64,000 nucleotides of DNA from a virus (taxonomy: Duplodnaviria; Heunggongvirae; Uroviricota; Caudoviricetes). Shown piece after piece: positions 9,030 to 32,828 of the stretch. The translations under genes and the position numbers were made by a program. Every line of letters begins with the position of its first letter. The stretch's first letter is position 1. A model generated the notes under the pieces. The model did no database searches and had not been told where the DNA came from. It saw nothing but the letters and a program-made list of their open reading frames with translations. Where the stretch lies: IMG/VR virus record IMGVR_UViG_3300042398_001452. One strand, 5' to 3'.

Positions 9030-9500
9030 ATGCCATCGTTATATTATCTTTCAAATGCACCATCAAATCTAAGAGACCTTGTAGCGTATTTGCCTGAGGA
9101 CTCTCGCATTTATTTAGTTGGCCACGGGCAAATGAATGCTTCAAAACTTTTGACTGCCTTTAAGAAATCATTAAAATTAAAAGGCGTATATTTAGGCTGT
9201 GTAGGCACCGGAAATTACCCGGGTGTTCAAGCAGCCAAAACATCATTGCCCCCTGGAGTTTACTATGGACCAATTAAATTTGATACGTATAATACTAAAG
9301 AACACCGGCATCTTAAAATGGTCCCCGCTTTTCTTGATTCTTATCTAGAGAGTATTAAATTAAAAGATCCCACTAGATATTCTTCTGCAATCTACGCTTT
9401 AAAAGAATCGGGTATTTCCCCTGATATTATAAGAAAGCATGAAGAAGAAAATAGACATATAATACGTTCAGGATCAATCCTTAGCAGATTCAGATTCTAA
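9030..9500 (+). CDS. hypothetical protein (156 aa) carrying the shared C-terminal module ...SAIYALKESGISPDIIRKHEE..RSGSILSRFRF
   Basis: C-terminal about 40 aa align with C-termini of 25482..26555, 29417..29989 and 31305..32828. EPM upstream. Confidence 0.65.
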   Translation: MPSLYYLSNAPSNLRDLVAYLPEDSRIYLVGHGQMNASKLLTAFKKSLKLKGVYLGCVGTGNYPGVQAAKTSLPPGVYYGPIKFDTYNTKEHRHLKMVPAFLDSYLESIKLKDPTRYSSAIYALKESGISPDIIRKHEEENRHIIRSGSILSRFRF

Positions 9501-9533
9501 GCATACTGCTGATCCTCCGGGTAAATAATAAGG

Positions 9534-9577
9534 AATCATTTTTTTATCTATGTAGAATTTTCTATATTAGCTATGTA
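9534..9577 (+). promoter_or_regulatory. EPM copy
   Basis: Upstream of the 9594 ORF. Confidence 0.6.
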
Positions 9578-9593
9578 ACCAACCATAATAATC

Positions 9594-9959
9594 ATGGAAG
9601 ACAAAAAGAAAATTACACCAGAGGAGAGGGTAGAGGGAATACTTAAAAGATATTCTCCTATAGACCATGAATACGAGAAAAGATTAGATAGAGCTGTTAG
9701 TAAATACTTTGCGGGGAGAAGATCTAACGATTCAGCTTTTGATGATGTTTTTGAATTCTATTACAATAAAGGAGACCTTTCAGCCGCTGATATAACTATC
9801 GAGGAATACGATGAATTAGATTGGAATCCTAGTGTCAGAATTCAGGCAGAGGTTGTACAATCTGCAGATCTTGACGATGAATTATTTTATTATCTAAGAG
9901 GGATTGTAGATCCTGATTGGTACGATGATGACGATGATGACGATGATGACGAATGGTAG
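9594..9959 (+). CDS. hypothetical acidic protein with poly-Asp tail (121 aa)
   Basis: Track ORF with EPM upstream. Ends in DDDDDDDDDEW. Confidence 0.6.
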   Translation: MEDKKKITPEERVEGILKRYSPIDHEYEKRLDRAVSKYFAGRRSNDSAFDDVFEFYYNKGDLSAADITIEEYDELDWNPSVRIQAEVVQSADLDDELFYYLRGIVDPDWYDDDDDDDDDEW

Positions 9960-9982
9960 AAAAAGAATCAAAAAAGATTTAA

Positions 9983-10023
9983 AATCATTTTTTTATCTGT
10001 AGAAGAATCCATATATTAGCTTA
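9983..10023 (+). promoter_or_regulatory. EPM copy
   Basis: Upstream of the 10047 ORF. Confidence 0.6.
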
Positions 10024-10046
10024 GTTAATCAATTAAACAAAACCAA

Positions 10047-10912: not shown

Positions 10913-10948
10913 GCGAGCCGAGGTTTTGACCAGGCCAGCTTGATTCAC

Positions 10949-10963
10949 CTGGGGAACCCCAGG
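10949..10963. repeat. PAL copy within a longer conserved element (GGCCAGCTTGATTCACCTGGGGAACCCCAGG..GATCCAGCC)
   Basis: The extended element recurs at 12371-12425 and 12921-12953. Confidence 0.65.
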
Positions 10964-11016
10964 AATCTTGATCCAGCCCTAGAATTTTTTTTTAGAAATT
11001 TCCACTTTTTTCCAAG

Positions 11017-11060
11017 AATCATTTTTTTATGTAGAATATTCTACTTATATTTGTATTGTT
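11017..11060 (+). promoter_or_regulatory. EPM copy
   Basis: Upstream of the 11083 ORF. Confidence 0.55.
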
Positions 11061-11082
11061 AATCAATTAAACACTTATAATT

Positions 11083-11394
11083 ATGAAAAAGGAAATGACA
11101 GCAGAACAAAAAGCAAAAAAGGCGGAGGCGAACAAGGCGTACAGAGAGCGCAAAAAAATGAAATCCCAAAACTGGATGGAATTGGATAAGTTCGAAATGA
11201 GTTTTGAACATAAAATCCGACTTTTTAAAAATCTTAAACTTGAGGATAGCAATTCCTACTGCGCTTCCCCGAACACGGTTTTGAGATTTGAAAAACTAAC
11301 CAATAACGATAATATAATCGTTTATCGGGTTCGCCGCACAGGTCGTCGAACTTTCTTCACCACATCCAACCACCTAGTCGCACCGGTTCAATAA
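11083..11394 (+). CDS. member B of the 4-copy basic-protein paralog family
   Basis: MKKEMTAEQKAKKAEANKAYRERKK...RVRRTGRRTFFTT. EPM upstream. Confidence 0.7.
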   Translation: MKKEMTAEQKAKKAEANKAYRERKKMKSQNWMELDKFEMSFEHKIRLFKNLKLEDSNSYCASPNTVLRFEKLTNNDNIIVYRVRRTGRRTFFTTSNHLVAPVQ

Positions 11395-11410
11395 CCGGGC
11401 ACTAGCCGAA

Positions 11411-11436
11411 AGGAACCTTAGGGTTCCTTTTTTACA
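11411..11436 (+). terminator. rho-independent terminator
   Basis: AGGAACC-TTAG-GGTTCCT plus T6. Confidence 0.75.
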
Positions 11437-11446
11437 TCCCAACCCA

Positions 11447-11461
11447 CTGCGGTTCCCCAGG
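11447..11461. repeat. PAL copy
   Basis: CTGCGGTTCCCCAGG, preceded by ACATCCCAACCCA as in the copy at 15311. Confidence 0.6.
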
Positions 11462-11486
11462 AGTTTTGATCAGAAATGATTTAAGA

Positions 11487-11527
11487 AATCATTTTTTTAT
11501 TCTAGATAAATCTCTTATATTTACTAT
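11487..11527 (+). promoter_or_regulatory. EPM copy
   Basis: Abuts ATG 11528. Confidence 0.5.
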
Positions 11528-12307
11528 ATGATATACAACCAAATATATGACTTCTGTAAGGTAAGAAATCTAGGAAGTGTTTTTGAAAATACTGATGTGC
11601 CTACACCGAGGGTGGAATTCCTACTAGAGCTTCTTGAGAAAGAAGGAGTCTCTTATGAGATCGATCGGTACAAGAAAACATTTAACTTTCTAGAGGAGCA
11701 AACAGATGTTTGGTGTTACAACATTATACTAAGGGGTGACTCAGATAAGATGCTAGTTGCTCATCATGATGTTGCTAACCATGAAATCGATAATGCTAAT
11801 GACAACTCCGCTTCCGTTATCAACGCAATAGCTTTAAAGAAAATGTTACCTAACATTCACGTTGTGTTATTAGACGGTGAGGAATTCGGAGGCATCGGAG
11901 CACAAAGAGTATCCGAACAAATCAATAAGGGAGACTTCGGTGATATCTCTTTTGTACTTAACCTTGAACTATCAGGTAAGGGAGGTAAACAATTTTTCGT
12001 CGGAGACGTTGGGGAATTCCCGAGTATACTCCATGAAAAAATTAAATCACAATTTCCATGTCCCACTGTTAGCACTCCGTTTAATGACTCGGTGGTGTTC
12101 AGAAGAAATGGTATAGACTCTTGCGTGATAAATCCTTTACCTAGCACGGATAATATTAATCCTCTCTCCCGAGCTATCTTTGAAGGAAGACAACTAGATA
12201 TGTCAATGCTTTACCACTGCCACACCTCGAAGGACACAATCGATACTATCGACCCAAATGATATGAAAGAATTCACCGAAGAGGTTGTTTTTAAAATTCT
12301 TGAATAA
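11528..12307 (+). CDS. hypothetical protein, possibly an M28/M20-like zinc peptidase fold (259 aa)
   Basis: HHDVANHEIDNANDNSASV followed by LLDGEEFGGIGAQ resembles the H-x-D...D-N-x-S-G and E-E-x-G motifs of M28/M20 aminopeptidases. Weak, motif-level only. Confidence 0.45.
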   Translation: MIYNQIYDFCKVRNLGSVFENTDVPTPRVEFLLELLEKEGVSYEIDRYKKTFNFLEEQTDVWCYNIILRGDSDKMLVAHHDVANHEIDNANDNSASVINAIALKKMLPNIHVVLLDGEEFGGIGAQRVSEQINKGDFGDISFVLNLELSGKGGKQFFVGDVGEFPSILHEKIKSQFPCPTVSTPFNDSVVFRRNGIDSCVINPLPSTDNINPLSRAIFEGRQLDMSMLYHCHTSKDTIDTIDPNDMKEFTEEVVFKILE

Positions 12308-12331
12308 GTAATCCTTCCATCCATAGAAGAG

Positions 12332-12358
12332 TCAGCATTTTATATGCTGGCTTTTTTT
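12332..12358 (+). terminator. rho-independent terminator
   Basis: CAGCAT-TTTATAT-GCTGG plus T7. Confidence 0.65.
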
Positions 12359-12392
12359 GTGGTCCAAAAAACTTAGGCCAGCTTGATTCACC

Positions 12393-12407
12393 TGGGGAAC
12401 CACAGCA
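12393..12407. repeat. PAL copy (degenerate)
   Basis: CTGGGGAACCACAGC within the extended GGCCAGCTTGATTCACCTG element. Confidence 0.5.
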
Positions 12408-12440
12408 AACCTGATCCAGCCTGTGCAAACTTTTTTCAGA

Positions 12441-12482
12441 AATCATTTTTATTTCTGTAGAATAATCTATACTTTAGCCTAG
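12441..12482 (+). promoter_or_regulatory. EPM copy
   Basis: Upstream of the 12504 ORF. Confidence 0.55.
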
Positions 12483-12503
12483 TTAATCAATCAAATAAAA
12501 ACA

Positions 12504-12866
12504 ATGACAAAAGAAACTTTAAATGCAGATTTGATAAATCAAATCATCAAGATGGATGGGGAACTTGATAAGGACCCAACGTACAAGAAGTATGAAAAAA
12601 TATTTGCAACTCAAAAAATAAAAGAGAGTATAGCAAAGAACTTCGGTATCGAGGCTGACCTTGTACCACAAGAGATGGTAGATGATCTACTAGTTTTCGC
12701 TGAAGAAAATAGCAGTGGCAACGGGCTAACTCCAGAGCTCGTAGTAAGCAGGAAAGATGAAGTGATGGAACTAGTTGAAGCTATAATCGATGTAGCCAAC
12801 TGGGATGAGGAATATGAACTAAGTCATAAACTTAAAGTGTTCGTAGACCTTCTTAAACAACTATAA
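12504..12866 (+). CDS. hypothetical acidic protein (120 aa)
   Basis: Track ORF with EPM upstream and terminator downstream. Confidence 0.55.
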   Translation: MTKETLNADLINQIIKMDGELDKDPTYKKYEKIFATQKIKESIAKNFGIEADLVPQEMVDDLLVFAEENSSGNGLTPELVVSRKDEVMELVEAIIDVANWDEEYELSHKLKVFVDLLKQL

Positions 12867-12884
12867 GAACTCAACAAAAAACAG

Positions 12885-12908
12885 AAGCCAGCAATGCTGG
12901 CTTTTTTT
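12885..12908 (+). terminator. rho-independent terminator
   Basis: AGCCAGCA-ATGC-TGGCT plus T7. Confidence 0.7.
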
Positions 12909-12938
12909 GTGCAACAAACCTAGGCCAGCATGATTCAC

Positions 12939-12953
12939 CTGAGGCTCCCCAGG
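12939..12953. repeat. PAL copy
   Basis: CTGAGGCTCCCCAGG within the extended element. Confidence 0.55.
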
Positions 12954-12976
12954 CTAGGAATCAAGAAAGATTCAGA

Positions 12977-13018
12977 AATCATTTTTTTGTTTGTGGAAAA
13001 ATCTATATATTAGCTATG
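12977..13018 (+). promoter_or_regulatory. EPM copy
   Basis: Upstream of the 13042 ORF. Confidence 0.6.
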
Positions 13019-13041
13019 TTAATCAATTAAAACACTAGCTT

Positions 13042-13197
13042 ATGTACTCTTTAGATTGTGACTATTACACAAAACAATTTTCATCCATCGATGAACTTCT
13101 AACAGATATTGTATTATCTGGTATGGACCCGAACTATGTAATAACATATAATGGTGTTACTATAGGATATCAAGCTATTGAACTAATACAATTTTAA
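13042..13197 (+). CDS. possible 51-aa protein
   Basis: ATG placed after EPM copy 12977. Next EPM copy follows immediately at 13200. Confidence 0.35.
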   Translation: MYSLDCDYYTKQFSSIDELLTDIVLSGMDPNYVITYNGVTIGYQAIELIQF

Positions 13198-13199
13198 GA

Positions 13200-13240
13200 A
13201 ATCATTTTTTTAATCAAATAGAATTTTCTACATTTACATT
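13200..13240 (+). promoter_or_regulatory. EPM copy
   Basis: Upstream of the 13256 ORF. Confidence 0.55.
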
Positions 13241-13255
13241 ATAAAACAAAATCAC

Positions 13256-13483
13256 ATGATACTCTTTATAACAATTTTCATCTTAGCTCTCCTGGTCCCC
13301 GTAATCACACAGACAGTAGGAATTGACCAATCCACAAATCAATATAAGGAGAGCTACATCGCGGAGGTGGGTGCCACCAGTTACTTTACCCTACCTCGAG
13401 GACAGCCCAAGTCACGGGCTTCTATTATAACAAACAAATCACTCCCACGCAACAAGGGAGAGCCCAAAGAAAACTCAAGTTAA
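13256..13483 (+). CDS. hypothetical protein with N-terminal transmembrane segment (75 aa)
   Basis: Track ORF with EPM upstream. Confidence 0.45.
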   Translation: MILFITIFILALLVPVITQTVGIDQSTNQYKESYIAEVGATSYFTLPRGQPKSRASIITNKSLPRNKGEPKENSS

Positions 13484-13487
13484 AAAA

Positions 13488-13512
13488 AAGACTCCACAAG
13501 GGTCTTTTTTTG
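13488..13512 (+). terminator. rho-independent terminator
   Basis: AGACTC-CACAA-GGGTCT (imperfect) plus T7. Confidence 0.6.
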
Positions 13513-13548
13513 TGGACCAAGTTTTTCAAATAGCATATGCTAGATTCT

Positions 13549-13564
13549 CTGAGGAACCACAGAG
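13549..13564. repeat. PAL copy (degenerate)
   Basis: CTGAGGAACCACAGAG. Confidence 0.45.
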
Positions 13565-13606
13565 AATCATTTTTTTATTTGTGGAAAAATCTTTATATTT
13601 GGATAT
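13565..13606 (+). promoter_or_regulatory. EPM copy
   Basis: Upstream of the 13634 ORF. Confidence 0.55.
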
Positions 13607-13633
13607 ATAAGTATAAATAAATAAAAAATTAAA

Positions 13634-14137
13634 ATGAAACACATTAAATTATTTGAGGGATTCATGAAGAATCCAAATCCTTATAAGGACATAACAGAAA
13701 GAGGTGAGTCTGTTTTCTTATTCCACGAAGAAGATTCTATTTGGTTTGGAATATTTCCAGATAATGTTGCGGAGGATCTTAAATATGCTTCTGAAGATTA
13801 TATGAAACATGCAATATCTAAAGGTTTAGGAGAGGAATATTACGATGTTTTTGTTGACCGAAGAGAAGGACTAGCTTATGTTGAATGGGAAGGTAAAAAT
13901 GGATGGAATGCTTGTACCCCAGGAGAAATTGATGTAAACGATTATAATTATGTTATGATGCCAGATGGAACTGAAATAGAAATTAATCCATCTGCTAAAT
14001 ATTCATCTCTTCCTTTATTTGCTTTAGAAAGAGGAATGATAACACACTATCAAGGAAACCACGGTAATGAACCTATGACTGTTCGAGAATACATGGATCA
14101 TTTAGAAAGTGGAAAATCAGATTGGTATTCTATGTAA
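13634..14137 (+). CDS. leader-family protein (N-terminus MKHIKLFEGF), 167 aa
   Basis: Carries the conserved N-terminal decapeptide shared by 17 proteins in this window. EPM upstream. Confidence 0.65.
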   Translation: MKHIKLFEGFMKNPNPYKDITERGESVFLFHEEDSIWFGIFPDNVAEDLKYASEDYMKHAISKGLGEEYYDVFVDRREGLAYVEWEGKNGWNACTPGEIDVNDYNYVMMPDGTEIEINPSAKYSSLPLFALERGMITHYQGNHGNEPMTVREYMDHLESGKSDWYSM

Positions 14138-14157
14138 GAAATAAAATATATCTAAAA

Positions 14158-14182
14158 AAAGACCCTACAAGGGTCTTTTTTT
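14158..14182 (+). terminator. rho-independent terminator
   Basis: AGACCC-TACAA-GGGTCT plus T8. Confidence 0.75.
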
Positions 14183-14222
14183 ATGCTCCAAGGTTTACAG
14201 TAAACAGTCTACTGTAAACCAA

Positions 14223-14237
14223 CTGAGGAACCTCAGG
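14223..14237. repeat. PAL copy
   Basis: CTGAGGAACCTCAGG, where both arms changed (G to A with C to T) and the palindrome is preserved. Confidence 0.65.
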
Positions 14238-14287
14238 AAAATAGATGTAGAGAAGGATTACATCTATAACTACATCTATAACTATAG

Positions 14288-14333
14288 CGGGCTCCCCCGG
14301 GGGACGCGTGCGTACGTGTGCACGCGTAGGCAC
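14288..14333. repeat. GCH copy 4
   Basis: GGGCTCCCCCGGGGGACGCGTGCGTACGTGTGCACGCGTAGGCAC carries a perfect 8-bp hairpin ACGCGTGC-gtacgtgt-GCACGCGT. 5' of EPM 14345. Confidence 0.6.
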
Positions 14334-14344
14334 TTTTTTTCAGA

Positions 14345-14388
14345 AATCATTTTTTTATTTGTAGAAAATTCCATACATTAGCTATGTT
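14345..14388 (+). promoter_or_regulatory. EPM copy
   Basis: Upstream of the 14409 ORF. Confidence 0.6.
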
Positions 14389-14408
14389 AATCAATTAAAT
14401 ATATACAA

Positions 14409-14543
14409 ATGGAAAGAACAATCAATTTTATCGCTTGGAGCCTTATCACTGTTTTAGCTTCACTTACAATCTATGGTATACTTTACGCAGCTATACAGAT
14501 AGTTATAGGTAATGTACATTCAACAGCAAGCTTTGAATTTTAA
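14409..14543 (+). CDS. possible 44-aa membrane peptide
   Basis: ATG immediately after EPM copy 14345. Hydrophobic. Confidence 0.3.
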   Translation: MERTINFIAWSLITVLASLTIYGILYAAIQIVIGNVHSTASFEF

Positions 14544-14547
14544 AAAA

Positions 14548-14709
14548 AATGAAAACTGTAATAACAAAATCACAACTTCTTAAGATAGAATCCGGGAGAG
14601 TCAGAGAAGACCAGAAAGCCCAAGGTTTCTTCGATGGAAGATTTGTTACAAGAGCTCAAGATTCAAAAAAGAAATACTCCCGCAAGGAGAAGCACAAGGG
14701 CATCAACTA
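14548..14709 (+). CDS. possible 53-aa basic peptide
   Basis: Small ORF between the preceding peptide and the terminator at 14730. Confidence 0.3.
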
Positions 14710-14729
14710 AGAAACAAAACCCTATCTAC

Positions 14730-14757
14730 CCCTTGTCCGTTCGGACAGGGGTTTTTT
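14730..14757 (+). terminator. rho-independent terminator
   Basis: CCTTGTCCG-TTCG-GACAGGGG plus T6. Confidence 0.7.
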
Positions 14758-14786
14758 GTGCGAATCCAAAATCCCTCTTAATCATC

Positions 14787-14802
14787 CTGGGGTTCCGCCG
14801 AG
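14787..14802. repeat. PAL copy (degenerate)
   Basis: CTGGGGTTCCGCCGAG. Confidence 0.4.
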
Positions 14803-14872
14803 TGGATTCAAAGAATCAGACCTCCTGAGATACCCCGAAAACTTTTTTCAAAAAAAATCAGAAATCATTTTT

Positions 14873-14914
14873 TTATTTGTAGAAAATTCTATATTTTAGC
14901 TAAGTTAATCAATT
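14873..14914 (+). promoter_or_regulatory. EPM copy
   Basis: Upstream of the 14929 ORF. Confidence 0.6.
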
Positions 14915-14928
14915 AAACAATATCAATT

Positions 14929-15249
14929 ATGAAAAAGGAAATGACAATGGAACAAAAAGCAAAAAAAGCAGCAGCGAACAAAGCTTACCGTGAGCGTAAG
15001 AAAAACCAAGCGGCAACTCCGAATTGGATGGAATTGGATAAGTTCGAAATGAGTTTCACTCACAAAATTCGACTTTTCAAAAACCTCAAATTGGAAATCA
15101 CAAATTCCTACTGCGCTTCCCCTGGTACAGTTTTGAGATTTGAAAAAATTAAAAACGAAGATAATAAAATTATCTTTCGAGTACGCCGCACCGGTCGTCG
15201 CACCTTCTTCACCACCTCGACTAACCTACACGCACCAGTCGAGGCGTGA
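14929..15249 (+). CDS. member C of the 4-copy basic-protein paralog family
   Basis: MKKEMTMEQKAKKAAANKAYRERKK...RVRRTGRRTFFTT. EPM upstream. Confidence 0.7.
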   Translation: MKKEMTMEQKAKKAAANKAYRERKKNQAATPNWMELDKFEMSFTHKIRLFKNLKLEITNSYCASPGTVLRFEKIKNEDNKIIFRVRRTGRRTFFTTSTNLHAPVEA

Positions 15250-15273
15250 TCGGGGTGGATGTAAAAAACCCAC

Positions 15274-15297
15274 GGGAATCTTCGGATTCCCTTTTTT
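15274..15297 (+). terminator. rho-independent terminator (paralogous hairpin GGGAATC-TTCG-GATTCCC)
   Basis: Hairpin plus T6. Same hairpin family as those at 15576 and 16604. Confidence 0.7.
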
Positions 15298-15310
15298 ACA
15301 TCCAAGCCCA

Positions 15311-15325
15311 CTGCGGTTCCGCAGG
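15311..15325. repeat. PAL copy
   Basis: CTGCGGTTCCGCAGG, where both arms changed (G to C with C to G) and the palindrome is preserved. Confidence 0.65.
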
Positions 15326-15357
15326 GAGACAGAAATTATTTTAAATAAAAATTCGAA

Positions 15358-15401
15358 AATCATTTTTTTATTTGTAGAAAATTCTATATATTAGCTATGT
15401 T
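15358..15401 (+). promoter_or_regulatory. EPM copy (exact consensus)
   Basis: Upstream of the 15422 ORF. Confidence 0.6.
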
Positions 15402-15421
15402 AATCAATCAAATAAAAACAT

Positions 15422-15571
15422 ATGAAATCAGAAACAAAAAAGAAATTAGAATTTCTAAAATCATTAGGATTGTCAGAAAATGAAATTAGTGAATTATTAG
15501 ATTCCCAATTCATCCTCGACCAATCCCAAGAATTTAAAAGGGAGGAAATTGAAGAAGAAGAAGAGTTTTAA
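15422..15571 (+). CDS. possible 49-aa acidic peptide
   Basis: ATG right after EPM copy 15358. Terminator at 15576. Confidence 0.35.
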   Translation: MKSETKKKLEFLKSLGLSENEISELLDSQFILDQSQEFKREEIEEEEEF

Positions 15572-15575
15572 AATT

Positions 15576-15600
15576 GGGGAATCTCCGGATTCCCTTTTTA
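15576..15600 (+). terminator. rho-independent terminator (GGGGAATC-TCCG-GATTCCC)
   Basis: Hairpin plus T5. Confidence 0.65.
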
Positions 15601-15613
15601 ATTTATATACCCT

Positions 15614-15630
15614 CTGCGGAACCCCAGAGG
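15614..15630. repeat. PAL copy
   Basis: CTGCGGAACCCCAGAGG. Confidence 0.55.
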
Positions 15631-15673
15631 GGCTCCATGGGGGACGCGTGCGTACGTGCGCCCGCGTAGAGGG
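15631..15673. repeat. GCH copy 5
   Basis: GGCTCCATGGGGGACGCGTGCGTACGTGCGCCCGCGTAGAGGG, 5' of EPM 15684. Confidence 0.55.
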
Positions 15674-15683
15674 TTTTTTCAGA

Positions 15684-15724
15684 AATCATTTTTTTATCTT
15701 CCCTAGATTTATTATATTTACACT
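15684..15724 (+). promoter_or_regulatory. EPM copy (degenerate)
   Basis: Abuts ATG 15725. Confidence 0.45.
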
Positions 15725-25490: not shown

Positions 25491-26555
25491 ATTAAATATT
25501 TCTCTGAGATCAATGAATCTAAAGAAGAATCAACAGAGATATTAGATTTTATAAAATCTTCACCAGAGGGTATTGATCTTTCTAGAATAAACGACAGGGG
25601 TACAGATATAAACAATATGTTTGAATTAGTAAGAACAGGGAGGGTATATTGTATTGGATTTGGCTCTAAAACTTATATAGATAAAAATCACAATGGAAAT
25701 TATTGCTGGCAAAGCCTATCTAACGGTAAGATATTTGCTCAAGAGTGCTATTCCACACTAAAAGAATGTATTAGAGAATTTTTTGTTACTGTGGTAAGTA
25801 GACAAATATCAGGAATGTATGGGGTTAAAAAGGAGGAAATGAGAAACTGGGTTTCTTCTAATATTCCTGTCGGTATGGGATTAACTATGTCTGATATAAT
25901 AGAAAAATATAAGGAATTAGAGGGAAAGAAAAAAGTGGATTTCTTAGAACTTTCTAAGGATAGTAGGGCTTTAAATATTATTGTTAATGCTTTTGGTGGA
26001 ATATTTGAAAAGCAACCTTATGATTATGACAGATATGACGAATACACATTAACTTTTAATATTTTTAAACCATTTGGGTTAGATATATGCGAATATGGTG
26101 ATAGAGCAAGACCTATTAGTGTCGTTATTAGAGCTGGTATGAAGGGAAAAAATAGCATTAAATCAGATTGGCACGGTGAGATTGTAAGTTTAGGAGATCA
26201 TGATACCGCTTTAAAATATTTCGATACTTCCTTACCTAAACTTCTAATTAATAAGTTATCAGGTAATAATAATAATGGGTATGGTTATTATATTCAGGGA
26301 GTAGATAATCTTTGTCCAGAATTATTGGAGTTGGTAAAATATATTTTTAGGGGAGATTATGATGTTAATAATAATCTTTCAGATATACTGGATTCATATC
26401 TTTCTAAAATTAAAACAAAAAATCCTATAATTTTTTCATCAGCAATACAATCATTAGAATCTAGTGGTAAATTCCCGGAATTGGTTGATAAGTATATTAA
26501 AAGCGATAAAGCTACTATCAAAGCAGGATCTATTTTAAAAAGATTTGAGCTTTAA
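25482..26555 (+). CDS. leader-family protein (MKHIKYFSEI) with shared C-terminal module (..SAIQSLESSGKFPELVDKYIK..KAGSILKRFEL), 358 aa
   Basis: Track ORF 25461..26555 trimmed to the ATG that begins the leader. The C-terminal about 40 aa align with 9030, 29417 and 31305 ORFs. Confidence 0.7.
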   Translation: MKHIKYFSEINESKEESTEILDFIKSSPEGIDLSRINDRGTDINNMFELVRTGRVYCIGFGSKTYIDKNHNGNYCWQSLSNGKIFAQECYSTLKECIREFFVTVVSRQISGMYGVKKEEMRNWVSSNIPVGMGLTMSDIIEKYKELEGKKKVDFLELSKDSRALNIIVNAFGGIFEKQPYDYDRYDEYTLTFNIFKPFGLDICEYGDRARPISVVIRAGMKGKNSIKSDWHGEIVSLGDHDTALKYFDTSLPKLLINKLSGNNNNGYGYYIQGVDNLCPELLELVKYIFRGDYDVNNNLSDILDSYLSKIKTKNPIIFSSAIQSLESSGKFPELVDKYIKSDKATIKAGSILKRFEL

Positions 26556-26572: not shown

Positions 26573-27094
26573 ATGATGAATTTTATTAATTTTAATCAGG
26601 AATATACTGTAGGTAACCTAACATATAAAAAATATATTCTATATTCTGGAGAAGATATAGAAAGAATAAAATCTGAAATAGTAGAAGACATAAAAGACGA
26701 GTGGGAGAATGAATTTGATGACATATCTGACATTTACTCAAGTTTTGATTTAGATAGTATTTCTTACGATACCAATGATATTATTAATGAGTATATAAAA
26801 AGCCGTAATACTGAACTTACTAGTTATAGATTACTTTTGAGTGACGAACCTTATACAGATATAAGACAAGCAATAGATTTTTATTTTGAATACCTTTCTA
26901 TAAGGCAGGAGGATTTAAATGATATCATTTATAATACTAAATTCTTTTTTGCTGGTTATTATGAGGATGTTAATCAGCTAATAGGTATAGTAAATAAGAA
27001 TGCTTTAAGCTATCTAATGGGATTTAAGGAAGACTATAAGATTTCATTGTCTAATCATTATATCGATAAGATAACTAAAATCCTAGCATATTAA
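26573..27094 (+). CDS. hypothetical acidic protein (173 aa), paralog of 21868..22380
   Basis: See the paralog alignment described for 21868..22380. Confidence 0.6.
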   Translation: MMNFINFNQEYTVGNLTYKKYILYSGEDIERIKSEIVEDIKDEWENEFDDISDIYSSFDLDSISYDTNDIINEYIKSRNTELTSYRLLLSDEPYTDIRQAIDFYFEYLSIRQEDLNDIIYNTKFFFAGYYEDVNQLIGIVNKNALSYLMGFKEDYKISLSNHYIDKITKILAY

Positions 27095-27100
27095 AAAAAT

Positions 27101-27913
27101 ATGAAATACATTAAACTATTTGAAGCTTTTTTAGCTAGTGATAATAAATCAACTATAATTTTATTTGGACCTCAAGGAGTGGGAAAAAGCACACTGGCTA
27201 AACAGTTAGGGAACGAGTTAAACATGGGAGTTATTGGCTCAGATGATTTTATAGATCAAGGGAATTGGTCAGCAGAGGAAATATGGAGTAAAGGATGGCA
27301 AGTTAGAAAACAAAATGAATATAAAGGAATGGTTAATTATCTTAATGATAATTTAGGTAAGCCTGTTATATTGGATGTTGGCGGTAGTCATGGAGTATGG
27401 GATGGAAAAATGCTAGAAGATATTATTGGTATGCTAGAGTCATATCCTAATAGATTCTTAATAATACCTTCTGAGAACGAAATAGAAAATCAGGAGTTTT
27501 TAAGAGGAAGATTATTAAAAAGGGAATTAGATATGCACCCTTCCAATATTAAATACTGGGAGGCTATTTTGAAGGGGGATACAAGCTTTGCAAAAGATTT
27601 TGATCACGAAAAAAGAAGTGAATTTTTAGAGAGAATAGAATTAGTAAAAAAAGAAGAAAAATATAGAACTATGGCTATGAATATGCTTAAATCTAGCCAG
27701 AATAGATATAACTCTCTAAAGAGAGGGGTTGAATGGATGGTGTATGATGATTCACCTGAACAAAAATTCGATTTTGAAATGAATAAGATGGAAGATTATT
27801 CAAAGTTCTTTATAGACACAATGAAAAATTCAGGGATAGCTAATCATATAATTTACAATAAAGAAAAGTCCTCTGATTTATTAGTTGGTGAAATAACAAA
27901 ATTATTAAAATGA
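27101..27913 (+). CDS. P-loop kinase-like protein with leader MKYIKLFEAF (270 aa)
   Basis: Walker A IILFGPQGVGKSTLAKQ after the leader. First 39 nt of this gene are identical to those of 27915..28637. Confidence 0.7.
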   Translation: MKYIKLFEAFLASDNKSTIILFGPQGVGKSTLAKQLGNELNMGVIGSDDFIDQGNWSAEEIWSKGWQVRKQNEYKGMVNYLNDNLGKPVILDVGGSHGVWDGKMLEDIIGMLESYPNRFLIIPSENEIENQEFLRGRLLKRELDMHPSNIKYWEAILKGDTSFAKDFDHEKRSEFLERIELVKKEEKYRTMAMNMLKSSQNRYNSLKRGVEWMVYDDSPEQKFDFEMNKMEDYSKFFIDTMKNSGIANHIIYNKEKSSDLLVGEITKLLK

Positions 27914-27914
27914 T

Positions 27915-28637
27915 ATGAAATACATTAAACTATTTGAAGCTTTTTTAGCTAAAAAAAATCCAAGGTATAAAAAACCGGAATATGAATTTAAGGAGTTCTA
28001 TAGGGTTTTTAAGGGTTATCCCGAGTTAAGAGCTCTTCTCCCTTCTGATATTGATCAGGATGTATTTTCTATTAAATCAGACGGATTTGGTGGGGAACCT
28101 AAATGGTTAGATAAACACTTAGATCCACCTAGTAAGTCTGACGAGATCACTACTGATGCTCTTTTAAGAATAGCAGAAGAGATGGATCCAAGATTTGTTC
28201 CTCTTATTCTTTGGTGTTGTGATTTATTTGAAAAGGGTGAGATGGAGAAGATGACTTTAGATTATATACGTCCAAGATTAAGATCTGATTTTAAGAATCA
28301 CGATTGGGCGGAGTTAGAAAAAAATCCGGATCTTTTAGACCAATGCGAGAAAGAATACAATAAAGCAATTGATGTAGGATTAGATGATGATATTCTTAAT
28401 AATACAGAAGGACTTGTACAAGAGTATCCTGATATCACTATATGGAAGGCTCAATTCTGGACTTATGTTAAGGGATCAATAGCACATTTTAATCGTGTCG
28501 AAGCCAGCGGAGGTGAATTACCTTGTACTCAGTTTATATTGTATAGAGGTAAATATTACACTGTGGGTGGTAGAAGAAGAATGTTCTGGCACTTCTATAA
28601 TCATGTGGATCCTACTGTATGGATAATGGAATTATAA
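27915..28637 (+). CDS. leader-family protein (MKYIKLFEAF), 240 aa
   Basis: Leader is identical at DNA level to the preceding gene. Rest of the protein is unrelated. Confidence 0.65.
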   Translation: MKYIKLFEAFLAKKNPRYKKPEYEFKEFYRVFKGYPELRALLPSDIDQDVFSIKSDGFGGEPKWLDKHLDPPSKSDEITTDALLRIAEEMDPRFVPLILWCCDLFEKGEMEKMTLDYIRPRLRSDFKNHDWAELEKNPDLLDQCEKEYNKAIDVGLDDDILNNTEGLVQEYPDITIWKAQFWTYVKGSIAHFNRVEASGGELPCTQFILYRGKYYTVGGRRRMFWHFYNHVDPTVWIMEL

Positions 28638-29416: not shown

Positions 29417-29989
29417 ATGAAATATATTAAGATTTTTGAATATTTCCCGCCTGATACAAAATTTGAGGTGGTTGAAAAATATCCAATGAATATTGAGAAG
29501 TTTTTTATCGATGCACCTTTTCAGGATTTTATTTCATTTATAAGTAAAAATTACCCAAAGAGTAGTTTTCTACATGCTTTTGTTAATTCTACCTGGGATT
29601 CCTACAATAAGGAAAAAATATTTATTTTATTGAGTCAATCTACACTTTGGTCTAAAAACGGTGTAATAGAATCTGAGCCAGTTGAAAGACTATTAGGTAT
29701 TACTATGTCTTACGATGGTAATATAAAAGCATCCGGATGGGACAATAATAAATTAGCAACAGACGAAGAACTAAATCAGGCTTCATCCGTTATATCTAAT
29801 AGTGGTTTAATGGATGAAAAACTTAAAGAGTATTTAGAAGAAGTAAGATCTAAAGATGCAGTATTATTTTCCCGTACTATTAACAAATTAGATACCAATG
29901 GAATTTTTCAAAATATTTCTAAATATTTTAAAGAGAAATATCCAGCTTTTTTTAAAGCAGGAAGTATACTGTCAAGATTTTCGAACTAA
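29417..29989 (+). CDS. leader-family protein (MKYIKIFEYF) with shared C-terminal module (..RTINKLDTNGIFQNISKYFKEKYPAFFKAGSILSRFSN), 190 aa
   Basis: Conserved at both termini. Overlapping start/stop with the upstream gene. Confidence 0.65.
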   Translation: MKYIKIFEYFPPDTKFEVVEKYPMNIEKFFIDAPFQDFISFISKNYPKSSFLHAFVNSTWDSYNKEKIFILLSQSTLWSKNGVIESEPVERLLGITMSYDGNIKASGWDNNKLATDEELNQASSVISNSGLMDEKLKEYLEEVRSKDAVLFSRTINKLDTNGIFQNISKYFKEKYPAFFKAGSILSRFSN

Positions 29990-30534
29990 TTTTTAAAAAA
30001 TTCTATGGTTGCCCATCTAGAGGGGGATTCTGCTAAAATCATTCTTCTTGATTTCCAATGATTTATATTCCCTAATTTTTTATCAGCAACTCCCCATATG
30101 TAATCATAGTTTAAATTGCTAACCCAATCTTTTAGCATGTTGCCAAATCCCATGTTTCTGTATTCAGGGTATACTGAAAGTGCTATCCCTTGTAATCCTT
30201 TCCCGTATAGATTCTCCATATATATTTTGGTTTCATCTGGCGGAAAATCTTTTATTTCGTCCATTTTTATTTGTTCTATAAAAGTGGTTGCAGATTTTTC
30301 GTTTAATAAATAACAACCCACTATTTTTTCATTTATAGAAAGGTATATCGATAACCCGTTTGAAAGTCTTGGCTGTATTCTTTTTCTTAATGATTCTTTG
30401 CTATCTTCTAAAAATCCAAAGGATGAATATAAAACATCTATAACATCTTCTTCCTTATCTGGTGTAATCACATCTATTAGGACATCATTTTTTGATTCAG
30501 AAATAAATGAATAGAAAGAATTTAGGTATTTCAT
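29986..30534 (-). CDS. GNAT-family acetyltransferase-like protein (about 183 aa from ATG at 30534; track ORF extends to 30645)
   Basis: IVGCYLL...GIALSVYPEYRNMGFGNMLKD resembles GNAT motif A (Q/R-x-x-G-x-G/A). Only minus-strand gene in this plus-strand run. Confidence 0.5.
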   Translation of the reverse strand: MKYLNSFYSFISESKNDVLIDVITPDKEEDVIDVLYSSFGFLEDSKESLRKRIQPRLSNGLSIYLSINEKIVGCYLLNEKSATTFIEQIKMDEIKDFPPDETKIYMENLYGKGLQGIALSVYPEYRNMGFGNMLKDWVSNLNYDYIWGVADKKLGNINHWKSRRMILAESPSRWATIEFFKN

Positions 30535-30573
30535 ATATCTTATATATTCCCAATTATTTAAGATATATAAAGG

Positions 30574-31308
30574 ATGAATCATATTAAGTCTATAGAGGAA
30601 TTCATATTTGAAAAAAAGAATCCTTGTTGGCCGGGATACAAGCAAATAGGAATGAAAAATAAGAACGGTAAAAAAGTTCCTAATTGTGTAAAGGTTAACG
30701 AGCAGCTTTTTTCCGATGCTAGAAAGTTTTCACAAATGTTAGGTGTGGGAAATCAAGATTCTCAGCAAGCCCCGTATGTTAACACTCCTACTGGACCTAT
30801 ACAAACATCAAGAAACGATGAAGCATCCTGTCCTAATAATGATTGTTGGTCACACTTTGGTAAGGAAGCTTTTTGGAATGGCGACAGTAAAATAAATAAT
30901 ATAACAGTACCTAAAATTACAATACAAAAATCACCCACTCTTTTTAAAATAACATACAGTGGACAGGTATCGGGATTTTTATTAAAACATGCTAAAGGAG
31001 GAAAGGGTGATACTATACATCAATTATTAAATGTATTAACTCTAGAATTAAATGAATACCTGAAAGGAGTTTCTGCAAAACCAGATGTAAATAGAATAAA
31101 AATGACAAAATCTGGTAATGTATTGGAGATTGAAGTACCATTGGTTAGTGGGAATGGTAAAAAATATATGATAGCTAGAAGAGGAGGATTAGGTCACGGT
31201 GGTGATTTTACTGGACTTAGAAAATATAAAAAAATGGAGGGTTACGAAGAAGCTGTACATAAAAGCGAGAATCTAACTGAAAAGTTTGTAACTGTGGTTG
31301 TATCATGA
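30574..31308 (+). CDS. leader-family protein (MNHIKSIEEF), 244 aa
   Basis: Track ORF with leader at N-terminus. Confidence 0.65.
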   Translation: MNHIKSIEEFIFEKKNPCWPGYKQIGMKNKNGKKVPNCVKVNEQLFSDARKFSQMLGVGNQDSQQAPYVNTPTGPIQTSRNDEASCPNNDCWSHFGKEAFWNGDSKINNITVPKITIQKSPTLFKITYSGQVSGFLLKHAKGGKGDTIHQLLNVLTLELNEYLKGVSAKPDVNRIKMTKSGNVLEIEVPLVSGNGKKYMIARRGGLGHGGDFTGLRKYKKMEGYEEAVHKSENLTEKFVTVVVS

Positions 31309-32828
31309 GTAGGATAAAAGGATTTAGCAATTTTATGGATGAAGGGATATATTGGGAAACATTAAAAGAATCCTATAGACGTGTTAAAGGTGTAGCTGTT
31401 AAGGTTTTCAATGCTTTTAAGAATGAGGGGAAAGAAACTTCGGAGATGATGAGAGTTTTTAATTACCAGCTGAGAAAGAAATTAAAACTTGATACAAGAG
31501 GAGACAATCCAACACAAGAGGAAATTAATATGGCCTTAGAGCAATTAAAAGATATTCCAAGATTAGCTCCTTATGCAATTATTCTACTTTCATCACCTAT
31601 ACCTTTTTCGAGTGTTATGTATACTGCTTTAGGAGTATATCTAAAGAGGATAAGCGGGGGATATATAAATCTTCTACCAGGATCTTTCAATAATATATTT
31701 AATGATCCTATTAAGGACGAAAAAATAGATGAAAAAAATATGAAATTTTTAAAATACTTCCATTTATTTGAATCGAGTAATTGGAAATTTACTTTTCCTA
31801 AAACAGATTCTGAATTGAACTCTATGCTAGAAGGACCCGCTGGAAAAAGCCTAAGGGAAATAAAGCAATTTCCTGATGAAATGAGATATGGTACTCCTTC
31901 AATTAGTCAAGGAAAAAGTATACAAATTTGGTCAGGAGCGGGTTACAATCTTATAGCTTCACTTCAAGGAAATATAGTATATGGAACAATGAGAGTATAT
32001 CCTTCAGTGATGCCAGTTCACCAAAGCTTAGAGATACTTATTGACTTTCTAACAATTTATCTTTTCTGTATATCTAAAAGAATTACTTATCATTCAGTGG
32101 AGGAATTTGTTTATTTAGGTAAGCCTCTTAGTTTATCAATATACAATAAGTGTATTCCTAGACCTAAACAATTCGAGGTAATAATTGGAATTGCTAAAAA
32201 ATATAACGGGAATTCTAATATTGAATCCATTATATCTAAAATAAAATCTGATTCTGATAGCAATGTACCATTTAGCCAGGAAACCTTAAATAAGAGTAGG
32301 GCCTATAGATTTTTCGATGAGGTATTTAAATTTAGTATAGGAGATGATAATTCAGATTTTTATCAGATAAATGGCGAGTATTTTGTTCCCTTCGGTATAA
32401 AGGGGACAGGTCGCGATTATAACAGGGGTATGGTTATATACATTCCTAAGAATAAATTTAATTATAAAAAGGAAGATAATGCTATAAAATTTATAGATAA
32501 ACAAATAATAGATAAGGTAAGAGAAAATTTAAGATATAACTATCGGACTCTTAATTCAGATGAAAATGGAGAACTTATTAAAAATCTGACCGAAGCTTTA
32601 TTAGAAGTTTATAATAGTGGAACGGAATTATTATATAGTGGTGGTGATTTATATAGTAGAATAAGAGATATATTAGATTCTGTAAGATTAAAAAATCCGG
32701 TATTATTCTCTGAATTTTTACAAGGACTATCCAATATAGCTGAATTTAAAGAACTAGCAGATGAATATATCGAAAAATATCAATCTTCTTTCAGAAGTGG
32801 TAATATATTAAGTAGATTTAGAAAGTAA
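31305..32828 (+). CDS. large leader-family protein (MSRIKGFSNF) with shared C-terminal module (..FRSGNILSRFRK), 507 aa
   Basis: Conserved at both termini. C-terminal ..SEFLQGLSNIAEFKELADEYIEKYQSSFRSGNILSRFRK aligns with the other tails. Confidence 0.7.
   Translation: MSRIKGFSNFMDEGIYWETLKESYRRVKGVAVKVFNAFKNEGKETSEMMRVFNYQLRKKLKLDTRGDNPTQEEINMALEQLKDIPRLAPYAIILLSSPIPFSSVMYTALGVYLKRISGGYINLLPGSFNNIFNDPIKDEKIDEKNMKFLKYFHLFESSNWKFTFPKTDSELNSMLEGPAGKSLREIKQFPDEMRYGTPSISQGKSIQIWSGAGYNLIASLQGNIVYGTMRVYPSVMPVHQSLEILIDFLTIYLFCISKRITYHSVEEFVYLGKPLSLSIYNKCIPRPKQFEVIIGIAKKYNGNSNIESIISKIKSDSDSNVPFSQETLNKSRAYRFFDEVFKFSIGDDNSDFYQINGEYFVPFGIKGTGRDYNRGMVIYIPKNKFNYKKEDNAIKFIDKQIIDKVRENLRYNYRTLNSDENGELIKNLTEALLEVYNSGTELLYSGGDLYSRIRDILDSVRLKNPVLFSEFLQGLSNIAEFKELADEYIEKYQSSFRSGNILSRFRK

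Follow-up and report, generated by a model that had tools for sequence, protein, structure and literature searches.

Four proteins encoded on the + strand of a viral DNA end in a common C-terminal module of 55–60 aa (~58 residues, aligned without gaps) that is real, previously undescribed, and restricted to one phage group. The corresponding open reading frames (ORFs)—9030–9500, 25482–26555, 29417–29989, and 31305–32828—lie in the window, i.e., the whole stretch of 64,000 nucleotides that was analyzed, and their coordinates and quoted ends were verified. According to the original prediction, these C-termini align over about 40 aa; they do, and the similarity is longer than claimed, with 17–25 identities per pair over the final 60 residues and an alignment of the 25482 and 31305 proteins that extends over ~120 aa. 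The full modules, each recovered by a leave-one-out HMM, are located as follows:

9324–9497, + strand: full module, last 58 aa of ORF 9030–9500 (E 2.9e-15)
26379–26552, + strand: full module of ORF 25482–26555 (E 1.6e-18)
29813–29986, + strand: full module of ORF 29417–29989 (E 2.8e-15)
32652–32825, + strand: full module of ORF 31305–32828 (E 2.6e-14)

In an AT-rich genome (28–39% GC), with its abundance of K, I, N, S, and F, low-complexity segments rich in K, S, I, and L might come to resemble each other by chance. This explanation is refuted. In ungapped BLOSUM62 comparisons, the six module pairs score 7.0–10.2 SD above residue shuffles, with 0 of 20,000 shuffles as high, and they remain 4.4–8.3 SD above shuffles when the terminal 12 residues are dropped. 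Leave-one-out HMMs regain every omitted member from a six-frame translation of the window (E 3e-14 to 2e-18), the best non-module match reaching only E ≥ 0.05. Independent relatives are found in other metagenomes: a search of 1.84 billion protein representatives returned only about 18 real ones, all from related uncultured large phages, so that the motif is not confined to the window. No match was obtained in Pfam (no family at E ≤ 1 for any carrier), PHROGs, NCBIfam, PADLOC, PDB sequences, or 50,697 GenBank phages; the module constitutes a new domain family that has well-marked boundaries, a fold prediction, and a motif by which it can be recognized.

Within one lineage of uncultured large (about 200–250 kb) phages, the module is fused to at least five unrelated bodies, and two further bodies bear it in cut-down form, as helix 1 plus the terminal helix or as the terminal helix alone. 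With leader and module removed, most pairs of carrier bodies give hhalign probabilities of 0.2–7%, in agreement with the proposal that the bodies are unrelated. The middles, which had been called hypervariable, are instead separate families, every one of which is conserved across its orthologues. ORF 9030–9500 (156 aa), located in an early-looking promoter array, lacks the N-terminal leader, carries a module of the 'RKHEEENR' subtype, and has a body unrelated to those of the other carriers (hhalign). ORF 25482–26555 (357 aa, 16 homologues) starts at the ATG at 25482 (MKHIKYF...), in agreement with the starts of its homologues. The module of ORF 29417–29989 (190 aa, leader MKYIKIFEYF) is retained in the orthologues P0006 and P0007. 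ORF 31305–32828 (507 aa) is itself composite:

31305–31739, + strand: N-terminal extension of ORF 31305–32828 (sequence and hhalign comparison)

The reading frame of this extension continues into a relic leader inside the protein, MKFLKYFHLFE (residue 146, nt 31740), beyond which the body is of the P0015 type: residues 146–351 match the body of P0015 and P0019 (hhalign 97.9%, E 4e-13), and residues 4–146 share 62.5% identity with the N-terminal part of L009:12150-13163, in which the same type of extension is fused to an HD-domain protein instead.

AlphaFold predicts four helices in the module of the 25482 protein (residues 299–313, 315–328, 332–341, and 343–354), with a pLDDT of 88–92 over the helices that declines to 75 at the end. 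Each of these short helices has two to three conserved hydrophobic positions, and the other conserved residues are mostly of the turn or cap type ([DN]P, SG, PE, GGS). Conservation is highest in the last helix, [KR]-G-[GSA]-S-[ILM]-L-x-R-F(-G-h), which is 45–73% identical between window paralogues, as compared to 17–39% for helices 1–3. A self-contained domain that folds and self-associates, dimerizing each protein separately and reused by shuffling without any shared partner or destination, could display this pattern of hydrophobic and turn positions, and module shuffling is documented (see below). Similarly, conservation of I-L-x-x-F could simply reflect core packing of a four-helix bundle. 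Self-association nevertheless seems an improbable sole function: it predicts neither the joint change of the tails of different proteins within a lineage nor the association with the leader, and the terminal helix, with its near-invariant exposed Arg, outlives the loss of the bundle.

This loss is seen in two ORFs whose short tails had been listed alongside the full modules, and two further tails are candidates:

45075–45176, + strand: mini-module of ORF 44517–45179 (220 aa, leader MRAIKTFENF; homologue conservation, AlphaFold)
45976–46014, + strand: terminal motif only (YLRGTEILNRFKF), ORF 45616–46017 (leader MRYIKLFESF; homologue ends)
20812–20859, + strand: candidate tail (ERSGLGITRFNYGLK), ORF 19747–20862 (leader MKHLKLFEDF; seen in the sequence)
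2312–2347, + strand: candidate tail (ALRAYSIISRYS), ORF 1508–2350 (I[IL]xR[FY] six residues from the end)

The mini-module consists of helix 1 (LLDKCEKIRKKNP) and the terminal helix (SISKGYDIINRFNLK), the central hairpin being absent. Within the window, the module HMM gives no significant match to the two short tails (E 0.1–0.9); conservation of the motif in their homologues shows that they are true mini-versions. Across 14 homologues of the 44517 protein, down to 45% identity, there is no or almost no variation at K209, G210, R216, and F217. Distant members end in VKGG[SGN]LLxRFGIFGTK, the same terminal motif that full modules carry in other phages, and the homologues in L019, L020, and L023 match the module HMM (E 1e-5 to 8e-7). 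In the same three phages, homologues of the 45616 protein end in KGSSMLGRFG[IL]F.. and co-vary with the neighboring 44517 family. The I[IL]xR[FY] motif occurs 11 times in the 113 window proteins, seven times at 6–8 residues from the C-terminus (0.55 expected), and this C-terminal excess persists without the four full modules (p = 0.008). As for the candidates, the module HMM does not detect the 19747 tail, and an L009 homologue of the 1508 protein shows no obvious conservation of its end. For the 44517 protein, AlphaFold predicts helices at residues 191–202 and 205–216, with pLDDT dropping to 47–67; a falling pLDDT in the terminal helix is as expected if this segment becomes ordered on binding.

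Most carriers also possess an N-terminal leader:

25482–25517, + strand: example of the leader (MKHIKYFSEINE) of ORF 25482–26555 (regex census)

Leader-type starts were counted in at least 15 of the 113 window genes. They occur in five of the six confirmed carriers versus 11 of the 107 other genes (Fisher p = 1.7e-4), which supports the conclusion that module and leader go together; the leader had been correctly assigned to three of the four full-module ORFs. In the leaders, which are disordered in the AlphaFold models of the 25482 and 44517 proteins, an L-F-E or [LI]-N-E is present and the Glu is invariant (E12 in the 25482 family, where M1, K5, and F7 are invariant as well, and E8 in the 44517 family).

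The 9030 module is 74% identical over helices 1–3 to that of P0005, despite the 25482-type body of the latter, with a breakpoint directly before LDSYLESIK; by this comparison of sequences, the module has moved between genes at least once. Portability is also seen in an independent phage, L006, in which a 70-aa tail (51% identity) with an identical end, ADLASDMGALGF, is found on a pair of proteins whose bodies are unrelated. Such movement could be taken as evidence that the shared ends are recombination cassettes for the swapping of bodies, encoding a peptide devoid of function. Two local similarities point in the same direction: the 5′ leader DNA of two adjacent genes (27089–27137 and 27903–27951) is 96% identical over 49 nt, and the last 36 nt of the two L006 tails are 89% identical with four synonymous differences. 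For the present-day window, however, the cassette explanation, which the original prediction had raised as a resemblance, is largely refuted and retains hardly any probability, since module-coding DNA is only 38–54% identical between copies, with no in-register exact run longer than 9 nt, near-saturated third codon positions, and differing Ser and Leu codons. A DNA repeat search of the window found no repeat family that connects the copies. Replacement sites are constrained and synonymous sites free, the motif is kept in orthologues down to 45% identity, and two L020 proteins encode GRFGIFG with different codons: selection acts on the module peptide rather than on the DNA.

The terminal motif also differs by lineage. 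In the window, the four full copies read G[SN]IL[SK]RF and the two mini tails YDIINRF and TEILNRF; in L019, L020, and L023, the forms are KGG[SN]LLxRFGI[FL]G and KG[SA]SM[LM]xRFG[IL]F; in L006, both copies read DMGALGF. FRSGNILSRF, the end of the 31305 protein, is 45–73% identical to its window paralogues as compared to 36% to P0015 and P0019, which share its body. The motif shifts in step across unrelated proteins of one phage lineage in three cases, corresponding to only about three independent lineage contrasts, and the likeness of the two L006 tails may stem from a recent gene conversion.

The analysis shows that the copies are homologous, portable, predicted to be helical, selected at the level of the peptide, co-varying by lineage, and associated with the leader; that the module binds, what it binds, and where its carriers go are inferences. 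The best reading, which we put forward tentatively and at less than even confidence, is that of a putative portable docking tag for a lineage-specific common partner. Three helices, the middle two of which make a hairpin similar to a TPR or PPR repeat, would form a small pedestal presenting the fourth, terminal amphipathic helix with the conserved motif. This helix would bind one common site, with its own specificity in each phage lineage and provided by a hub protein or by the copies of the module on the other carriers; different proteins would thereby be gathered at the same place. Since most carriers have a leader resembling the T4 capsid targeting sequence (CTS), a phage assembly would be the likeliest destination, e.g., the prohead interior or an ejected protein complex. 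No structural or assembly genes are present in the 64-kb window, and the leaderless 9030 protein, with its early-looking promoters, does not fit well with a late, packaged protein. Many proteins of large uncultured phages lack annotation; a shared, portable end-tag would sort them according to where they go instead of how they fold, and would lead to a common partner that could then be isolated.

The window encodes a ClpP (56659–57231; Pfam E 8e-28) and a tmRNA, so this phage does deal with tagged proteolysis, and ClpX recognizes basic or hydrophobic C-terminal signals. The tails might accordingly be imagined as degradation tags through which an unfoldase feeds the phage-encoded ClpP, imposing a common, timed lifetime on their carriers. 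This is very unlikely given that the extreme C-termini are not conserved: between the motif and the C-terminus there are 0–3 residues in the window and as many as 8 in other phages, and the last 2–8 residues vary freely (RF, EL, SN, RK, or an extension of up to 8 residues that is often acidic). Moreover, the tails do not resemble the end of the phage tmRNA tag (...ELLMAA), and a degron has no need of a folded 45-aa pedestal.

The main rival to docking is that the last helix is a cationic amphipathic membrane-targeting sequence of the MinD/FtsA type, which would make the carriers peripheral inner-membrane proteins. E. coli MinD ends in KKGFLKRLFGG, and the K-G-(G-S)-h-L-x-R-F-G-h pattern of the module resembles this tail (K-G-h-L-K-R-L-F-G). 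Like such sequences, the predicted helix is about 10–12 residues long and lies at or near the extreme C-terminus, and it is preceded by a Gly-rich hinge (KGGS). The six window tails have a net charge of +2 to +4 and a hydrophobic moment (over 11 residues) of 0.49–0.75, at or above the 0.38–0.40 computed for MinD tails. The mini-tail genes lie in a conserved block together with a 558-aa protein rich in hydrophobic Gly/Ala segments and a small signal-peptide protein. Furthermore, the C-terminal amphipathic helix of MinD can be transplanted to unrelated proteins (PMC8155659). Membrane targeting nonetheless seems rather unlikely, for tails elsewhere are acidic (net charge −3 and −4 in L006, −3 in P0025, −2 in P0015, −1 in P0023) or carry acidic extensions (...FGFDDED, ...NIFDDSEDQ, and ...GLGENE in other lineages), which is unfavorable on anionic bacterial membranes. 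It also leaves the lineage-specific co-variation of unrelated proteins unexplained and gives no account of the conserved 45-aa pedestal traveling with the helix, which is absent from the MinD/FtsA type; in the 25482 model, AlphaFold packs the helix in the bundle (pLDDT ~89).

Several known systems share features with the docking tag. Designer PPR proteins have a 35-aa consensus to which the central K[DN]P..FS..I..L..SG.FPE...KY can be aligned, and this resemblance of the hairpin explains a PPR match, P0010, which is false. The module is nevertheless a single hairpin, scoring 6–9 bits per repeat (per-repeat E 7–84), rather than a tandem array of 34–35-aa hairpins, and no Pfam PPR or TPR model matches. 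Dockerins, C-terminal docking modules of ~60–70 aa found on many unrelated cellulosomal bodies, whose partner (cohesin) varies between lineages, follow the same logic; they are Ca-binding duplicated loop-helix motifs without sequence or fold relationship to the module, and no carrier matches a dockerin profile in Pfam at E ≤ 1. C-terminal addresses to the inner face of HK97-fold shells are known from encapsulin cargo-loading peptides and from the C-terminal helix-turn-helix of scaffolds (P22 gp8; 80alpha scaffold and SaPI1 CpmB), and a coat-binding end can be common to unrelated proteins. These provide a parallel for C-terminal addressing, as a lead rather than a demonstrated similarity. The suggestion of a polymorphic effector system can be kept as a tentative analogy. 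The closest parallel is provided by the internal proteins of T4, for which an N-terminal MKTYQEFIAE of ~10 aa serves as the address to the prohead and is then cleaved off (bioRxiv 10.1101/2021.01.19.427310; PMC3012670). Both sets comprise otherwise unrelated, fast-evolving phage proteins with a common short terminal address. In contrast to the T4 peptide, the module is C-terminal, 55–60 aa long, predicted to be folded, without sequence homology to the CTS, and without a conserved [LI]-x-E cleavage context; neither a gp21-type protease nor head genes occur in the 64-kb window. It is the separate leader, MKHIKLFE.F or MKHIK.F..[LI]NE, that resembles MKTYQEFIAE in length and position, in starting with M-K, in its central Phe, and in having a Glu within an [LI]-x-E context. 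A speculative and on balance unlikely idea is that of a two-part sorting code in this huge-phage lineage: a disordered, probably cleavable leader would mark many proteins as one class (at least 15 in the 64-kb window), and a lineage-specific docking helix on its pedestal would sort a subset (at least 6) to one site, for which the inside of the prohead, a complex of ejected proteins, and, after injection, the host membrane are candidates. If the module, together with the leader, were a true packaging or localization signal, it would represent a second natural loading system after the T4 CTS, of use in engineering wherever a protein of choice is to be loaded into phage particles or brought to a given site in the cell; and the two-part code, if true, would constitute a previously unknown form of cargo addressing in tailed phages, analogous to, and independent of, the T4 CTS and encapsulin cargo-loading peptides.

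The C-termini predicted for four open reading frames of the window (9030-9500, 25482-26555, 29417-29989 and 31305-32828, each named here by its first coordinate) were confirmed in translation, and their last 60 residues align without gaps, with 17-25 identities. The shared C-terminal module of the original prediction is real and longer than proposed: about 40 aa had been given, and the ungapped alignment gives ~55-60 aa. Between 25482 and 31305, the similarity extends over ~120 aa. All module pairs score 7-10 SD above residue shuffles, far above shuffled low-complexity sequence; none of 20,000 shuffles scored as high, and without the last 12 residues the pairs still stand 4.4-8.3 SD above shuffles. 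In a six-frame translation of the window, an HMM built from three members retrieved the omitted fourth at E 3e-14 to 2e-18, the best unrelated match being 0.05. The leave-one-out HMM and the shuffle scores rule out a chance or low-complexity origin, to which we assign no weight.

The family alignment comprises, in its first half, helix 1 (L..YL..I[KR].K), a [DN]-P cap, helix 2 (..[FY]S..I..L) and an S-G turn and, in its second half, F-P-E, helix 3 (...K[YF]...), the segment [IL][IL][KR]-G-[GSA]-S and helix 4 ([ILM]-L-x-R-F). Beyond helix 4 come, in most cases, G-[FLI] and then 0-8, often acidic, residues. In an AlphaFold model of 25482 (16 homologues, mean pLDDT 80.7), the module helices span residues 299-313, 315-328, 332-341 and 343-354; the body is alpha/beta and residues 1-12, the N-terminal leader, are disordered. 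The helix 2-3 hairpin scores 6-9 bits per repeat against the PPR consensus without a Pfam match, and the module profile retrieved nothing but a weak PPR-like resemblance from PDB sequences; this likeness was treated as generic to helical hairpins. The Bacteroidota type IX secretion C-terminal domain was ruled out, the module being predicted to be helical rather than a beta-sandwich. A helix-turn-helix DNA-binding motif was likewise rejected, since on inspection the hairpin departs from the usual hydrophobic/Gly pattern and Pfam yielded no profile match.

Looked for outside the window in related phages, the motif was found in uncultured relatives. A profile of the four tails gave 22 matches among 1.84 billion representative proteins; four are repeat-protein artefacts, and the real ones are close counterparts of window proteins, ~355-aa homologues of 25482, orthologues of 29417 and proteins of the P0015/P0019 type, all of them unnamed and free of Pfam domains. 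All carriers, i.e., proteins bearing the module or the terminal motif, lacked significant matches in Pfam, PHROGs, NCBIfam and PADLOC. No match was found for 25482 and the neighboring gene 27915 among 50,697 GenBank phages (tblastn), nor for the four window tails or the 29417 family in IMG/VR, and a BFVD fold search with the 25482 model returned nothing at E <= 0.001. The module alignment alone, probably too short a query for the index, found no match in a word-indexed protein search, a DNA pattern for G..LL.RFGIFG yielded only noise across IMG/VR, and JGI metagenomes contained window-type tails only in the same phage. These sequence searches show a genuine, rare and previously undescribed family that is limited to this phage group.

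The window itself is part of an uncultured large ("huge") phage, since its genes have identical or related counterparts only on metagenomic contigs, including the IMG/VR contigs IMGVR_UViG_3300032307_000764 (248 kb) and IMGVR_UViG_3300036770_006296 (207 kb) with gene order in common; no DNA-level relatives were found among GenBank phages. It is AT-rich (28-39% GC) and densely coding, nearly all on the + strand. The Dda-type helicase is only ~30% identical to its closest phage relatives, two proteins were assigned by eye to the sigma-70 family, and a Pfam domain search identified ClpP, deoxyhypusine synthase, an SPFH protein, an M28 peptidase and a CHAP domain. The 25482 family has no match in GTDB genomes and hence offers no host clue. 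A complete tmRNA gene (23446-23866, + strand) lies inside a 480-nt inter-ORF gap and matches the full Rfam model RF00023 (92.7 bits, gathering score 47, E 8e-35); its ARAGORN-predicted tag, ANVYNTEDIMSIPTSLTRVAVAEEAELLMAA, is unusually long, and the window also encodes the ClpP (56659-57231). S-adenosylmethionine decarboxylase-like (46755-47126) and deoxyhypusine synthase (50027-51007; Pfam DS, E 1.5e-41) genes lie near each other, and AdoMet_dc is annotated on the syntenic genes of the related loci L019 and L020. Because both genes are kept in related phages, polyamine or hypusine-type metabolism may be phage-encoded. Paralogous ~170-aa acidic proteins (..Y.LYSGE..E.IK..I...IKDEW..) are found at 21868-22380 and 26573-27094, at 4973-8773 in the related locus L009, and in several copies per genome of related phages.

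Small genes of the window are accompanied by two repeats. One, of ~60 nt (..AGAAATCATTTTTTTATTTGTAGAAAATTCTATATATTAGCTATGTTAATCAATTAAAC), has ~18 copies between 1137 and 18184 (e.g., 9979-10038, 14859-14918, 16212-16271) and stops 8-14 nt before the start codon in many small genes, an arrangement that resembles a series of (early?) genes, each with its own promoter, sharing one type of 5' untranslated region; ORF 9030 is preceded by a weaker variant. The other, a GC-rich palindrome (..CTGCGGCACCCCAGG..; ~10 copies, 10941-18439, e.g., 17410-17441 and 18074-18105), occupies gaps between small genes, as a rule immediately upstream of the promoter-like repeat, and may represent terminators or processing sites. 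A basic protein of ~100 aa (MKKEMTAEQKAKKAAANKAYRERKK...RVRRTGRRTFFTTS) is present as four paralogues (8054-8359, 11083-11394, 14929-15249, 16281-16583), each following its own promoter-like repeat, and copies exist in the related loci L009 and L011.

The bodies of the carriers were compared profile versus profile (hhalign) after removal of 14 N-terminal and 62 C-terminal residues. Bodies of the 25482, 29417 and 9030 types and one body from L006, a locus of a distant relative, gave mutual probabilities of 0.2-7%. The claim of unrelated bodies therefore holds for these, whereas a distant relationship is possible between the C-terminal halves of the 25482 and 31305/P0015 bodies (hhalign 17%, E 0.0014). 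The 31305 protein is a composite of three parts, with the following features:
Residues 4-146 (nt 31305-31739, + strand): N-terminal extension, whose L009 counterpart (12150-12560) is joined to an HD-domain protein instead.
Residue 146: internal relic leader MKFLKYFHLFE, following the extension.
Residues 146-351: match to the P0015/P0019 body (hhalign 97.9%, E 4e-13).
The ~146-aa extension has a hydrophobic stretch and no stop codon of its own; it reads through into the next leader-bearing gene, a module carrier in the window versus the HD-domain protein in L009, the leader being kept at both junctions. The picture of hypervariable middles fails because every body type is well conserved within its own orthologues; these are different proteins with one common end. 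No structural neighbor was found for the body of 44517. This would suit inhibitors directed at the host, which the T4 internal proteins are, but amounts to a hint at most.

Helices 1-3 of the 9030 module are 74% identical to those of P0005 and P0027, related proteins with 25482-type bodies, as against 17-39% identity between the 9030 module and others of its own genome; the similarity to P0005 begins exactly at LDSYLESIK. In L006, two proteins with unrelated bodies have a common 70-aa tail (51% identity). These two cases indicate that the module was fused to a new body on more than one occasion. The four module-coding DNA segments are 38-54% identical, with third codon positions close to random and a longest in-register exact run of 9 nt. 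The Ser and Leu codons of GS-IL-S-RF differ in every window copy, as do the codons of GRFGIFG between two L020 proteins. Since the DNA has diverged and the same motif is written in different codons, selection acts on the peptide. Recombination-competent cassettes, as originally proposed, are scarcely credible for the present day given this divergence and the lack of any DNA repeat family connecting the module copies in the window. Gene conversion is possible in the L006 tail pair, because its last 36 nt are 89% identical.

The short tails of 44517 (44517-45179) and 45616 (45616-46017) are not significant matches of the module HMM inside the window (E 0.1-0.9). That they are genuine is supported by motif placement, conservation and predicted structure: I[IL]xR[FY] occurs 11 times in 113 window proteins, seven times at 6-8 residues from the C-terminus (p = 0.008 with the four full modules left out). 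Across the 14 sequences of the 44517 family, which reach down to 45% identity, K, G, R and F at the C-terminal end vary little or not at all, distant relatives end in VKGG[SGN]LLxRFGIFGTK, the full-module motif of other phages, and an upstream helix (L..KCE.IRK[KN][NY]P) recalls helix 1. AlphaFold predicts a helical hairpin (191-202, 205-216) for the 44517 tail, with confidence dropping toward the end. As 44517 retains helices 1 and 4 and 45616 helix 4 alone, helix 4 would seem to be the working part of the module. Both genes lie in a conserved block (41416-46017; 7000-11400 in L019 and L020) made up of a sigma-70 family gene, a ~535-558-aa protein whose long hydrophobic segments are rich in Gly/Ala and whose tail is rich in Lys, the 44517 family, a small signal-peptide protein and the 45616 family.

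Among window paralogues, the terminal 11 residues are 45-73% identical, compared with 17-39% for helices 1-3. The end of 31305 (FRSGNILSRF) is nearer to its genome-mates than to the same-body proteins P0015 (VRGGSLLRKF) and P0019 (IKGGSLLRRF). The adjacent, unrelated short-tail proteins change together across loci, the pair being YDIINRFNLK + TEILNRFKF in the window, L021 and L022 (where the first instead reads YDIISRFNTK) and GG[NS]LL[GN]RFGI[FL]G + G[SA]SM[LM][GN]RFG[IL]F in L019, L020 and L023; both L006 tail proteins end in ADLASDMGALGF. Such co-variation, seen in only about three independent contrasts, is the pattern expected if the carriers of one phage fit the same receptor or each other. 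We tentatively read the module as a docking tag, in which helices 1-3 would form a pedestal presenting helix 4 to a lineage-specific site, on a hub protein or on other carriers, so that different bodies would be gathered at one assembly. The main rival, a membrane-targeting helix 4 like that of MinD, draws on the computed cationic and amphipathic character of the window tails and on the resemblance of the motif to the MinD tail KKGFLKRLFGG, but is considered unlikely in view of acidic tail variants, the co-variation and the conserved pedestal. Still less likely is a plain self-association domain, which would account for the fold but neither for the co-variation nor for the survival of helix 4 alone. 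The tail is very unlikely to be a degron for the phage ClpP, as its very end is not conserved.

The leader, M-x-x-[ILVM]-[KR]-x-[FIY]-x-x-[FIYWL], starts at least 15 of the 113 window genes, listed here by start position among others:
13634, 19747, 25482, 27101, 27915, 28686, 29417, 30574, 31305, 34806, 44517, 45616, 51106, 51850: + strand, leader genes.
19101, 48148: - strand, leader genes.
Its forms, MKHIKLFE.F or MKHIK.F..[LI]NE, are conserved in related phages, with an invariant Glu within L-F-E or [LI]-N-E, and are also borne by P-loop kinase-like, HD-domain and CHAP-domain proteins. The leader is present in five of six confirmed carriers versus 11 of 107 other genes (p = 1.7e-4), and it is disordered in both AlphaFold models (25482, 44517). 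No mention of the leader strings was found in the literature. The leader resembles the T4 capsid targeting sequence MKTYQEFIAE, an address by which unrelated internal proteins reach the core of the prohead and which is subsequently removed (bioRxiv 10.1101/2021.01.19.427310; PMC3012670). Because it is retained inside two read-through fusions (31305 and the L009 HD fusion), a processing site fits the leader better than a signal requiring a free N-terminus. At 27089-27137 and 27903-27951, a 49-nt stretch (MKYIKLFEAFLA) covering the first 12 codons and upstream bases is 96% identical between two adjacent genes that otherwise differ, suggesting that duplication or gene conversion has recently taken place at the leader. 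Owing to the leader, the most likely destination of a docking tag would be a precursor of the phage particle or an ejected complex.

The module is a real, new and portable domain family, with a clear functional hot-spot, of an uncultured giant-phage lineage. In concept it stands beside the terminal address and docking modules already known, to none of which it is related.
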